Of a stretch of 64,000 bases of DNA, positions 5,196-50,347 are shown piece by piece. Position 1 is the first letter of the stretch, and each line of letters opens with the position of its first letter. Source of the stretch: Candidatus Babeliales bacterium (GTDB lineage Bacteria > Babelota > Babeliae > Babelales > JANWKD01); the NCBI GenBank assembly GCA_963762115.1, contig CAVXJH010000003.1, forward strand, positions 522,418 through 586,417, read 5' to 3'. The translations under genes were made by a program, and so were the position numbers. The notes below the pieces were generated by a model. It did not search any database and was not told where the DNA came from. It worked only from the letters and a program-made list of their open reading frames with translations.

Positions 5196-5261
5196 AATTT
5201 TATAAACATAAATTTTATTATCTCTCGGCCCTATGCGGGCAGCACAAAGGTATTGCGTGCC

Positions 5262-5614
5262 TCCGCCTACGCTTATCCAGGCCTTCAGGCTTGGCAAGCT
5301 TCGTCGGACAGGCAATATACCTTTGATACAAGGGCATCCGCCTTCGCCAAGGCTTCGGCGGACAGGCCAACCCTTCGAAGCGTTAGCGTAGTAGGGCCGC
5401 GCGAATATACACCACTCACTCATTGATGCCTTCAGCATCAAAATTCCAGGTGCACGTCGCACTACCGGACTAACTTATTTATAAAAATTTCGCCATGCAA
5501 CATCTATAAATATTCCGTTGAGCAAGACTGTTAGACGATCTGCAACATCTTTGCGAAGGTTTTCCTGTCCTTCGTAGCTTGCCAAGCCGGAAGGCGTGGA
5601 TAAGCGTAGGAGGA
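5262..5614. repeat. GC-rich palindromic repeat cluster (CCTGTCC-ended family)
   Basis: 5262-5312 and 5564-5614 are inverted copies (45/51); shorter copy at 5334-5367; additional hairpin at 5371-5396. Confidence 0.8.
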
Positions 5615-5719
5615 TGCCTAGCCGGCACGAGGCTTATTTGACAAATTGACTAAAAGAGATTAATTTTAAAACATAATAGTTATTAATAGTTATAATAATT
5701 ACAATTCAGACTATCAGAT

Positions 5720-9931: not shown

Positions 9932-10258
9932 TTATCGCTGCACTGGTAATTTGCCATATTCATACAAAATACAAAATATAAAACCAATGCCTAATAGAGC
10001 AATACTCGCGCTAATAAGGTGACCAGCAAATCTTATTCTTTTATCACAAAATTCGGCAATCTGAACATTAGTAATTTTACCGTCAGAATCTTTTGTTGTT
10101 ATTTGAAAAGAAGGATATTCGGCACAAGGAATACCCAAAAAATAATCGGTTTGAACCGGAGCTAATTTAATAATTTTTGTCGATGTTACACGTGGAACAG
10201 CCTCAAAAAAACTGCACATTAAAATCAGAATGGCCAATAATAGCCTATTTATTTTCAT
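9932..10258 (-). CDS. Hypothetical membrane protein
   Basis: Signal peptide and C-terminal TM; GGAG RBS. Confidence 0.55.
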   Translation of the reverse strand: MKINRLLLAILILMCSFFEAVPRVTSTKIIKLAPVQTDYFLGIPCAEYPSFQITTKDSDGKITNVQIAEFCDKRIRFAGHLISASIALLGIGFIFCILYEYGKLPVQR

Positions 10259-10504
10259 AATAACTCCATTTTACTGATAAGATAACCTCAATATAACTAT
10301 TTTATCAAAAATGGAAAAAATGACAATCAATATATGCTTATTTGTAAATAATAGGCAGAAAATGGTCACTTAACCCTGGTTATTCATAAAATACAGGGTG
10401 TTTTATGCCTTAACCTATAAATGTGCTGCAAAACATTGTAAACTTACTATTAAGGCAAATTCGATAAAAACGTGCTGATAGCAAAAAAACGTAAAAAACA
10501 GAGG

Positions 10505-10919
10505 TGTCATTGCGAGCCAACATTGTTGGCGTGGCAACTCAGCCAATAAAATTCTATTAATGAGATCCCTATGAAACAACCCGCAGTGTACATTATAACA
10601 AATAAAAAAAATGGAGCTCTTTATACAGGAGTAACTTCTAGTCTACTGCAAAGAATTCATCAACATAAAAACAATATAATTGAAGGATTTACAAAACAAC
10701 ATGGTTGTAAATTACTTGTCTATTATGAGCTTTATGACAACATGTTAAAAGCAATTGAGCGTGAAAAACAAATAAAATCAGGATCAAGAATAAAAAAATT
10801 AAAACTAATTGAATCAGCAAATCCTTGTTGGTTTGATTTGTTTGAGCAAATCAATAAAGAAAATTAATAGAATTTTATTGGCTGGGTTGCCACGCCAACA
10901 ATGTTGGCTCGCAATGACA
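10505..10919 (+). mobile_element. REP-bounded GIY-YIG nuclease element, copy 1 (putative autonomous)
   Basis: 57-bp inverted repeats 10505-10561 / 10863-10919 with 1 mismatch, enclosing only a GIY-YIG ORF. Confidence 0.75.
10571..10867 (+). CDS. Stand-alone GIY-YIG nuclease, 98 aa
   Basis: VYI...LYTGVT..L..R..QH...GFT...LVYYE...AIEREKQIK...NP.W.DL pattern; Tyr, Arg, His and Glu catalytic candidates present. Confidence 0.92.
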   Translation: MKQPAVYIITNKKNGALYTGVTSSLLQRIHQHKNNIIEGFTKQHGCKLLVYYELYDNMLKAIEREKQIKSGSRIKKLKLIESANPCWFDLFEQINKEN

Positions 10920-11010
10920 TTTCCGACTATCTAAGTTACCGTTAAAATTGTTTATCACCTACATCGAGTTCGCATTATAACGTTATACACCAAATTCATT
11001 AGGTAAATTC

Positions 11011-11973
11011 ATGCAAAAAGAAAACATTAATAATAAAAATACGAATTTCCAACTCCTCAACACAAAAACAATTCTCGAGGTTATTGGCAACACACCGTTA
11101 GTAAAAGTAGATTTTGGCACACCACCCACCATTTTGGCAAAATTAGAATACCTCAACCCTGGTGGCAGCATAAAAGATCGCGCAGCACTCTTTATGGTTG
11201 AAGAAGCTGAAAAAAAAGGCTTATTAAAACCTGGCGGCACCATTATCGAAGCATCTTCAGGCAATCAGGGCATTGCTGCTGCAATGATTGGCGCTGCTAA
11301 AGGATATAAAGTCATTATCACAACCAACAAAAAATTTAGCCAAGAAAAAATAAATACCATCACCGCCTATGGCGCTGAGATTATTATGTGTCCTTGCACT
11401 GAATTTGTAGAAGATCCACAAAGTTACCACAGTCAAGCAGTCACTCTGCACAAAAACACCCCTAATTCGTTCATGCTTAATCAATATTATAATCTCGCCA
11501 ATTCCCAAGGGCATTATCATTCACTCGGACCTGAAATATGGCAACAAACCCAAGGCGCAATAACTCATTTTTTTGCAGCTTCAGGAACCTGCGGCACCAT
11601 CACTGGCGTCGGCAGATATTTAAAAGAACAAAATAATGCGGTAAAAGTCATTGCCGTTGATGCGGTGAATTCATATCGCAGCACGCAAGGACACCCAAAA
11701 CCTTACTCTTTAGAAGGCATTGGTGTCGATTTCGATGCACCGATTTTGAATGCTTATCAATCATGTATTGATGAATTTTTTTGCGTTTCAGATGATCAAG
11801 GCCTTGCAATGTTAAAAAATATGGCCCGAAATCATGCCATTTTAGGTGGGCCAAGCAGTGGCGCCGTCGCCCACGCTGCTTATGAATATTCAAAAACCCT
11901 TTCTCCCCATGATATTGTTGTGATGATTATTGGCGATTCAGGACGAGCCTATTTGAGCAAAAATTATTATTAA
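11011..11973 (+). CDS. cysK: PLP-dependent cysteine synthase / cystathionine beta-synthase family
   Basis: IGNTPLV, KLEYLNPGGSIKDR, EASSGN, GTCGT motifs. Confidence 0.85.
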   Translation: MQKENINNKNTNFQLLNTKTILEVIGNTPLVKVDFGTPPTILAKLEYLNPGGSIKDRAALFMVEEAEKKGLLKPGGTIIEASSGNQGIAAAMIGAAKGYKVIITTNKKFSQEKINTITAYGAEIIMCPCTEFVEDPQSYHSQAVTLHKNTPNSFMLNQYYNLANSQGHYHSLGPEIWQQTQGAITHFFAASGTCGTITGVGRYLKEQNNAVKVIAVDAVNSYRSTQGHPKPYSLEGIGVDFDAPILNAYQSCIDEFFCVSDDQGLAMLKNMARNHAILGGPSSGAVAHAAYEYSKTLSPHDIVVMIIGDSGRAYLSKNYY

Positions 11974-35922: not shown

Positions 35923-35967
35923 TAATTTTATAGTGATAAATAATTAGTAAAATAACCAAAATAATCA

Positions 35968-36384
35968 AAATGTCATTGCGAGGCACATTGTGCCGTGGCA
36001 ACCCAGCTTATAAAATTCTATTTATTTTTCCTTATTAAGTTGTTCATATAAATCAAACCAACAAGGGTTTATTGATTCAATAAGCTTCAATTTTTTTGTT
36101 CTTGATCCAGACTTTATTTGTTTCTCTCGTTCAATTGCTTTTAACATATCTTCATAAAGCTCATAATATACAAGTAATTTACAACTGTATTGCTTTGTAA
36201 AGCCGTCAATCATATTATTCTTGTGCTGAAAGACTCTTTGAAAAAGATTAGAAGTTACACCCGTATAAAGTGCACCATTTCTTTCATTTGTCATAATATA
36301 TACAGCTGCTTGTTTCATATGAATCTCATAGTAGAATTTTATAAGCTGGGTTGCCACGGCACAATGTGCCTCGCAATGACATTT
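35968..36384 (-). mobile_element. REP-bounded GIY-YIG nuclease element, copy 2 (putative autonomous)
   Basis: Perfect 53-bp inverted repeats 35968-36020 / 36332-36384 enclosing only a GIY-YIG ORF. Confidence 0.75.
36022..36318 (-). CDS. Stand-alone GIY-YIG nuclease, 98 aa
   Basis: 79/98 identical to 10571-10867 with no gaps; true start is MKQAAVY. Confidence 0.92.
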   Translation of the reverse strand: MKQAAVYIMTNERNGALYTGVTSNLFQRVFQHKNNMIDGFTKQYSCKLLVYYELYEDMLKAIEREKQIKSGSRTKKLKLIESINPCWFDLYEQLNKEK

Positions 36385-36433
36385 CGATTTCAATATTTTT
36401 GTTGTTAGCGTAAACATGATTGTTAACATGACA

Positions 36434-44381: not shown

Positions 44382-44519
44382 TGTCATTGCGAGGAGCATT
44401 GCGACGTGGCAACCCAGATTATAATGTTCTAATAAAAAAATCTTTGAAAAAGTTTAAGGAAAATCAGTAGGATTTTATATGCTGGGTTGCCACGCCAACA
44501 ATGTTGGCTCGCAATGACA
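44382..44519. mobile_element. Non-autonomous REP doublet of the GIY-YIG element family (138 bp)
   Basis: 44481-44519 is identical to 10881-10919; left end is a variant REP. Confidence 0.75.
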
Positions 44520-47949: not shown

Positions 47950-48089
47950 CGATGTTTAATACATGATAAAATAACTTTTACTTAATGTAAGTTCGGTTAA
48001 ATAGTAAGCATAAAACAAAAGATTTGAAACCTGTAATGTCATTCCGAGGCACATTGTGCCGTGGGAACCCAGATCATGATGTTCTATTA

Positions 48090-48183
48090 GAGCTTATCCG
48101 AAACTTAAGTATCATAAAGAAAACTATGCAAAAGAAAGAGGATGTCATTCAGAGTTCGCGTTTTGCGCGGACGTGGAATCCAG
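48090..48183 (+). repeat. IS5-like MITE left end followed by a REP copy
   Basis: tta|gagcttatccgaaa as at 63260; REP at 48143-48183; no right TIR found. Confidence 0.55.
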
Positions 48184-50074: not shown

Positions 50075-50347
50075 GTTGATAAGTAATGCACATTTTGAAA
50101 CAAAATCAAACAGATGCTATCAAAAATCTAAAAAATTTATATCTCACACACGAATTTAATAAACACAATGCTCTAAAATTGTTTGACAGGAAAAATAGTT
50201 TGTTTTTTATAAGTATTTAATTTATTAGAACATTATAATCTGGGTTCCCACGGCACAATGTGCCTCGGAATGACATTTCTGTTATTAACGTTCTTTTTTT
50301 AGCGCAAACAAGCCTTATCTTAAATACTTTTACTTCTTGAATTTACG

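Follow-up and report, generated by a model that had tools for sequence, protein, structure and literature searches.

The window, that is, the whole 64,000-nt stretch of DNA analysed here, contains two small cassettes, copy 1 and copy 2, each with a GIY-YIG gene between inverted repeats (Table 1). Copy 1 is located at 10505-10919. A 57-nt inverted repeat, matched at 56 of 57 positions, encloses the 98-aa ORF 10571-10867; the spacer between the arms is 301 nt, and the sole mismatch is at 10539 (T versus C). Copy 2, the second GIY-YIG cassette of the genome, is located at 35971-36381 on the opposite strand. In their longest form (35963-36020 and 36332-36389), its arms are 58 nt with one mismatch, and 53 nt of them are exact. 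Every cassette arm consists of a TGTC-headed imperfect hairpin and an AT-rich tail, and the heads face outward. In the 1.53-Mb genome, the tail motif of copy 1 has just two occurrences, one per arm. A previous reading made from the sequence only had reported end matches of 56/57 and 53/53, an identity reaching into the tail, and about 19% divergence between the two proteins. All of these were confirmed (for the last, see Table 1); the identity enters the tail in both cassettes, and in copy 1 it starts at the hairpin head.

Table 1. Positions of the cassettes, leaders and repeats discussed in the text (window numbering)
Feature	Position	Strand	Remarks
Probable outer leader, copy 1 gene-5' side	10455..10504	+	Distinct from the 3' leader; approximate outer limit
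Copy 1 gene-5' arm	10505..10561	+	TGTC-headed imperfect hairpin repeat (SRM/CGTC-type) with A-type tail; C>T at 10539
Ssn-like gene of copy 1	10571..10867	+	98 aa, single-domain GIY-YIG; Y7/Y18/R28/E65 present
Copy 1 gene-3' arm	10863..10919	-	Overlaps the stop codon; likely conversion donor
Outer leader beyond hairpin head, copy 1 gene-3' side	10920..10972	-	Homology among copy 1, copy 2 and the G001 cassette; approximate outer limit
Copy 2 gene-3' arm	35971..36020	+	Exact match to its partner over 50 nt from the head
GIY-YIG gene of copy 2	36022..36318	-	Versus copy 1: 79/98 aa and 240/294 nt identical
Copy 2 gene-5' arm	36332..36381	-	Partner of 35971..36020
Gene-less heterodimer doublet	44382..44519	.	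B tail and A tail, cores 6 edits apart; counter-example within the window
Solo B-type repeat (48035 end)	48037..48090	+	Not one element with the 50275 repeat
Solo B-type repeat (50277 end)	50221..50275	-	Not one element with the 48037 repeat

Relationship to the Ssn nucleases

The 98-aa protein of copy 1 matches PF01541 (E=1e-15, 58.1 bits against a cut-off of 22.6) and no other Pfam domain. A search of NCBIfam gave only a sub-threshold match to an intron endonuclease, and a search of the PDB only a weak match to UPF0213. According to tblastn, the copy 1 and copy 2 genes are the only two close matches in the genome. The nearest outside relative (83%) is at locus L082 in G001, a sister genome of the same genus. 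The metagenome protein scan found relatives only at 51-66% identity, and the clade-specific DNA pattern had 0 metagenome matches. Thus, only three cassettes are known for this clade, copy 1, copy 2 and the G001 cassette at L082.

The Ssn proteins are single-domain GIY-YIG nucleases of about 94 aa, whose binding to a YGTC-headed hairpin requires ssDNA; the cleavage falls a few bases upstream of the hairpin (Chenal et al., 2025, PMC11893778). Repeats are present on both sides of 42% of the homologs, each homolog is flanked by its own repeat variant, and an IS-like origin and domestication of this layout were already hypothesised (PMC11893778). In the case of SsnA from Neisseria meningitidis, dsDNA is not cut, the identity of the loop is not essential for cleavage, and the binding depends most on the cytosine after the palindrome (PMC11893778). 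The 98-aa protein shares with the Ssn family (cd10448) the small single-domain GIY-YIG build of about 95 aa, and its Y7, Y18 and E65 are spaced like Y6, Y17 and E64 of SsnA, as compared by spacing and not by alignment. Both GIY-YIG genes here are flanked by oriented repeats, and the repeat family has 87 profile matches in the genome, 81 of which were parsed; an oriented YGTC-headed hairpin on either side of the gene and dozens of dispersed copies are also found in the Ssn/NTS/SRM system (PMC11893778). R. tamurae and R. asembonensis are scored as cd10448-positive in the table of Chenal et al. (PMC11893778). The small GIY-YIG loci fetched from R. tamurae (5/6) and R. asembonensis (2/2), compared without long ORFs and one match below the cut-off, are all 40-64% identical to the 98-aa protein (E<=2e-13).

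Judging from its size, residue spacing and layout, 10505-10919 is likely an Ssn-family cassette with the SRM-ssn-SRM layout, a member of an already published system. By analogy with the Ssn proteins, its nuclease is predicted to nick ssDNA just outside each hairpin. It would add to the ssDNA-cutting enzymes one whose repeats fall outside the published SRM pattern. This degenerate pattern is a search tool, and it gave a match for 71% of the homologs (PMC11893778). The repeats here miss the pattern (0/81 exact, 8 with one substitution), and the cassette arms are 3-4 edits away from it. Ca. Babela massiliensis, the only Babeliales row found in the supplement of Chenal et al., has 0 SRM and no homolog (PMC11893778). 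Among the papers listed by a literature search, with subscription journals mostly outside its scope, only Chenal et al. (2025) dealt with Ssn, and none with partner-end matching in Ssn cassettes. The accessible text of that paper does not treat the identity of partner ends, outer leaders, empty sites or remnants of the gene inside doublets (PMC11893778).

Three further small GIY-YIG genes of a different group are present in the genome (G000:C5:10664-10876, C5:155858-156073 and C5:148358-148567). The one that can be aligned is about 32% identical to Ssn, and one carries TGA. They sit downstream of a second, GC-rich palindrome family, and the first follows an apparent tRNA 3' end. Window 5259-5617 is one of about 22 loci of a repeat family that resembles this GC-rich palindrome in appearance.

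Comparison of the repeat ends in the genome

After removal of 6 truncated or interrupted repeats from the 87 profile matches, 81 ends were compared; a few divergent repeats lie outside this set. The ends form 31 convergent pairs less than 600 nt apart, and the difference between two ends was counted as edits over the core and 16 nt of the tail. The copy 1 arms are 1 edit apart, and the copy 2 arms 0. Each of the four cassette arms has its partner as the sole closest end, with a margin of one edit in the case of copy 2. End pairs within 1 edit amount to 43 of 3240 (1.3%) overall and to 15 of 435 (3.4%) within the same tail class (A-tail). Partners are nearest neighbours in only two of the 31 convergent pairs, and both are the gene-bearing cassettes. 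In the 29 gene-less doublets, the partners differ by 13.97 edits on average, compared with 13.38 after shuffling (p=0.80); for the tails alone, partners resemble each other less than shuffled ones do (5.21 versus 4.60 edits, p=0.02). None of the 29 is within 2 edits, and 20 are heterodimers with an A tail and a B tail. For 29 of the 31 pairs, partners are no closer than random pairs. The sequence-only reading, that partner ends match and differ between elements, applies to the two gene-bearing cassettes and fails for the gene-less doublets.

A tree was calculated from 56 A/B-class ends with few columns, leaving out 25 other ends. The copy 1 arms are sister leaves with a support of 98/87. The copy 2 arms show no resolved sister relation, and no sister pairs were found among the A/B doublets or for 48037/50275. 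The core of copy 2 is the commonest variant (12/81 ends), and its tail is the same as that of the G001 cassette. The repeats at 48035 and 50277 had been regarded as another pair with its own variant, and this did not hold. Their core is among the commonest variants (10/81 ends), their tails differ at 2 of 16 positions, and 9 other ends match the 50277 end as well as 48035 does, or better. The two are separated by 2.1 kb with another repeat, two unrelated ORFs and no ssn gene. One element was rejected on the basis of the common core, the lack of a sister relation and the unrelated ORFs in between. The similarity of 48035 and 50277 is a coincidence of a common variant, the match of copy 2 is weak evidence, and that of copy 1 is a real signal.

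Similar doublets are known from the CGTC-tagged REPs (CGTC-1: dRS3, Rickettsia RPE-6), which are tagged imperfect palindromes and mostly paired (PMC3733652). Their bias to homodimers or heterodimers varies with the family and species, and the heterodimers were suggested to evade SbcCD-type clearance (Di Nocera et al., 2013, PMC3733652). Unlike in these families, the head here is mostly TGTC and the doublets bear traces of the ssn gene; the accessible text of PMC3733652 has no link to GIY-YIG (0 occurrences of 'GIY').

Several other features of the repeats were observed. The B-type tails (26 ends, for example window 44415-44430) mostly contain an exact TATAAT and are never beside an intact ssn gene. 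A link of this motif to the expression of the nuclease is possible; as for a TATAAT promoter, a scan of 10400-11020 gave no site. Seven short doublets with 41-47 nt between the cores have two different cores and a nearly self-complementary AT spacer and are REPIN-like (for example G000:C3:63851-63955, C3:329325-329436 and C6:521316-521422). At G000:C3:206113-206372 and C3:214098-214325, repeats of the main family are interrupted within the hairpin by copies of the second, GC-rich palindrome family.

Outer leaders, empty sites and related cassettes

In the three-way alignment of the clade, the similarity runs 40-55 nt beyond the hairpin head on the gene-3' side, and blastn of L082 extends to 10957 and to 35916. 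The leader motif is present in 29 of 81 upstream flanks, compared with 3.1% in the AT-matched background. The two outer leaders of one cassette differ from each other. Therefore, the hairpins occupy subterminal positions, and homogenisation affects the hairpin and tail only.

At the G001 site syntenic to copy 1, the flanking genes lead directly into a PALP-family gene, and neither a cassette nor the 108-aa neighbour is present. This neighbour, the ORF at window 9932-10258 (-), has no Pfam match and is missing there along with copy 1. At the copy 2 site, G001 has about 20 nt where the window has about 510. Loss in G001 is a possible cause of both absences. The three clade cassettes are at three different, non-syntenic sites. 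Together with the common outer leaders of about 50 nt, the empty sites and the non-syntenic positions show, at the level of sequence comparison, that the cassettes move or are copied as units. The earlier statement that the ends are not independent REP insertions is upheld by the empty sites and the homologous leaders. A 7-nt direct repeat around copy 2 was rejected as a target duplication; it is AT-rich and unlike the empty site in G001.

Another G001 cassette, L111 (ssn cassette at G001:C1:974631-974912), carries the inner hairpin of copy 1 and lies about 2 kb from the copy 1 syntenic site, on the other side of two membrane-protein genes; this is a local hop or a coincidence. It is enclosed by a near-exact direct duplicate of about 63 nt of the left arm and tail, 503 nt apart (568-630 and 1071-1133; G001:C1:974567 and 975070), as if it had been inserted into, or duplicated from, a solo repeat.

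The spacers of the gene-less doublets were compared with the interior of the ssn gene. Eight of 21 match in the cassette orientation at p<0.05, five of them at the shuffle floor of 0.003; 13 of 21 have no significant match, the spacers being AT-rich and the p values uncorrected for multiple tests. On account of these gene remnants, the doublets are probably deleted cassettes. Fold-back or circle junctions were also searched for in five runs, which hold 5-18% of the sampled words, all in contigs, with no holder of RNA listed. None was found over copy 1, at a coverage generally too low to speak for or against such molecules. Over copy 2, a single joint (300 nt skipped, 55 other letters in between, one contig, side 30) is interpreted as a gene-less doublet of another locus and not as an excision.

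To see the end matching more widely, 150 distinct ssn loci with flanks were surveyed, and 92 have a convergent repeat on either side, some rows being mis-parsed. Among the 92 loci, only copy 1 itself is within 1 edit, and only copy 1 and the G001 cassette have tails within 2 edits. Over 73 loci, partner cores are closer to each other than to other local copies (p=0.002), whereas tails are not (p=0.67). In the four G001 cassettes, all with open reading frames, the core/tail edits are 9/1, 15/8, 14/7 and 1/7; in the one closest to copies 1 and 2, the cores are 9 edits apart. None of 53 parsed Babeliales cassettes is within 2 edits over core and tail. The motif-based analyses of 91 Babeliales loci are biased, since the folding filter kept 42 and the GC filter kept 54 and dropped copy 1. 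Thus, we relied on the longest stretch with at most one mismatch between the flanks, a motif-free measure available for 88 of the 91 loci. The median for the 86 other Babeliales cassettes is 29 nt, four reach 40 and one reaches 50, compared with 57 and 58 here.

The hairpin cores behave differently from the full ends. Of 55 within-genome pairs of cassettes, drawn from 26 genomes, 46 have a core closer to its own partner than to an end of the other cassette, with 3 ties and 6 against, and 0 of 20000 permutations were as high as observed; the pairs share cassettes, and kin are not independent. The excess depends on the protein identity of the two cassettes: 30/32 below 70% aa, 11/12 at 70-80% and 5/11 at 80% or more, where the mean own-cross difference is -0.1 nt (Spearman -0.58 over identity). 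This pattern fits one hairpin type per nuclease lineage, as Chenal et al. noted (PMC11893778). The recent paralogs L247/L269 of genome G214 (92% nt) and L245/L268 of genome G208 (91% nt) have unrelated distal flanks and keep distinct left and right ends. In the case of L247 and L270 of G214 (98% nt), the left hairpin differs, and that of L270 is of the short right-end type. Thus, the swaps are fast and single.

Origin of the matched ends

In the alignment of six arms (copy 1, copy 2 and the G001 cassette), the two ends of copy 2 have a CTTAT-type tail, and those of the G001 cassette agree with it to within one base. Both ends of copy 1 have a derived tail (CCAAT), with two tail substitutions common to the two arms. 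Since this private tail is in both arms and the arms are sister leaves, one copy 1 arm was likely copied onto the other as a past event. Moreover, the junction in the 5' arm of copy 1 is of the 3' type and exceeds that of copy 2 and the G001 cassette by one base. The direction is therefore read as 3'-to-5', to which this one junction in three sequences points. The C>T at 10539 would be later than the conversion, and it falls on the position corresponding to the cytosine after the palindrome which SsnA needs most, as suggested by analogy across distant homologs. The earlier idea that one end is templated from the other thus stands as a past event in copy 1, and not as an obligatory fold-back intermediate.

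We consider that the matched ends probably reflect an inherited pairing of nuclease and repeat, with episodic arm conversion on top of it. In the related genomes, the two ends of each cassette lineage are of one hairpin type, and the contrast between cassettes grows with the divergence of the proteins, for which the inherited pairing would be the cause. The arms may be homogenised now and then. In copy 1, a single transfer between the arms, through template switching or gene conversion over the spacer of about 300 nt, would have brought the tail and junction from 3' to 5', after which the new C>T arose. Copy 2 would retain the ancestral symmetric tail with the commonest core at both ends, so that at most one core swap is needed, and the gene-less doublets may be deleted cassettes which keep their unequal arms. 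We propose that nicks by Ssn may start the conversion. Template switching and recombination are published routes of inverted-repeat homogenisation (PMC5941160). As in that process, imperfect arms become perfect by a multi-nucleotide change in one step; the published arms are below 20 bp with spacers of at most 70 bp, whereas here the arms are 57 bp and the spacer is 301 bp (PMC5941160). The well-supported conversion is one event only, that in copy 1. Both intact cassettes here are matched beyond a rare random process, and selection or a lineage-specific mechanism may contribute.

Selection could act on the intact cassette if perfect arms fold the ssDNA into a 57-bp panhandle that conceals both hairpins from the ssDNA-only nuclease encoded between them; matched arms would then persist only beside an intact gene. 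Folding predicts such a panhandle (-92.3 kcal/mol, z -13; a single arm gives -8.3), SsnA leaves dsDNA uncut (PMC11893778), and 2/2 intact cassettes are matched against 0/29 doublets within 2 edits. However, all four G001 cassettes have open frames and unmatched ends, which argues that matching is not required, and the count within 2 edits over the 53 parsed Babeliales cassettes is zero. A heterodimer doublet folds back too (-35.6), and such selection would still need conversion to create the match. Copy 1 and copy 2 arms differ chiefly in the inner stem-loop, in or next to the loop; as the loop identity is not essential for SsnA, selection by the nuclease alone is a poor fit, and copying is the better explanation. 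We regard the panhandle as an unlikely cause. Chance and ancestry, that is, a small pool of variants and an ancestrally symmetric tail, might match the ends without arm-to-arm copying. For copy 2 this would be enough, with its frequent core, its G001-like tail and its place in the tree. The tail of copy 1 is confined to its own two arms, and two independent identical double substitutions are improbable; as an account of both cassettes, it is quite unlikely.

The earlier model, in which hairpin or fold-back replication always rebuilds one end from the other, agrees with the match into the tail in both cassettes and with the start of the copy 1 identity at the hairpin head, and REPINs were proposed to move as ssDNA hairpins (PMC3337134). 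Against this, the recent paralogs of G214 and G208, which occupy unrelated sites, have retained distinct ends; such a step would erase this asymmetry. The cores of the sister-genome G001 cassette are unmatched, only copy 1 among the 92 broad loci is within 1 edit, the outer leaders differ between the ends, and the doublets are mostly heterodimers. As a family rule, fold-back is largely refuted, and we consider it very improbable as the origin of the ends here. The asymmetric recent paralogs and the conserved leaders outside the repeats also differ from a TIR element with ends regenerated by fold-back. A collapse of the consensus in this metagenome-type assembly could make the arms alike, and the gene-5' arm of copy 1 is absent among the identical contig pieces listed. 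Nevertheless, one mismatch survives between the copy 1 arms, and other doublets of the same assembly are unmatched. In addition, 10870-11020, the gene-3' arm of copy 1 with its unique flank, is reproduced without differences in a 151-nt contig of run X4, and a contig of run X5 does the same for 35925-36075, the corresponding region of copy 2; the two runs are possibly related to the source of the assembly. An artefact is highly improbable.

The pairing of nuclease and repeat is known from the literature, and no new intermediate is revealed by the matched ends. Chenal et al. put forward the IS-like origin of the Ssn repeats only as a hypothesis (PMC11893778), and this clade offers comparative footprints of multiplication: syntenic sites that are empty, boundaries lying about 50 nt beyond the hairpins, recent copies in unrelated places, traces of the gene within doublets and a single arm-to-arm conversion that can be dated. 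These footprints define substrates for a direct test of mobility. To our knowledge, GIY-YIG proteins are hydrolytic nucleases with no strand-transfer step, so any mobility of the cassettes would need host repair. Tentatively, Ssn cassettes could be autonomous mobile elements without a transposase, although we hold this to be rather doubtful: the nuclease would nick beside the hairpins, host repair would copy the cassette with its leaders of about 50 nt, nick-primed synthesis would overwrite one arm, the panhandle would shield the intact gene, and deleted copies would spread as unequal-armed doublets. In the REPIN/RAYT system, inverted REP doublets are likewise non-autonomous units beside one small ssDNA-acting enzyme, and asymmetric REPINs are known in enterobacteria (PMC3337134, PMC8049555). 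RAYT is, however, a tyrosine (HUH) transposase (PMC3337134, PMC8049555), whereas the cassette gene here is of the GIY-YIG type.
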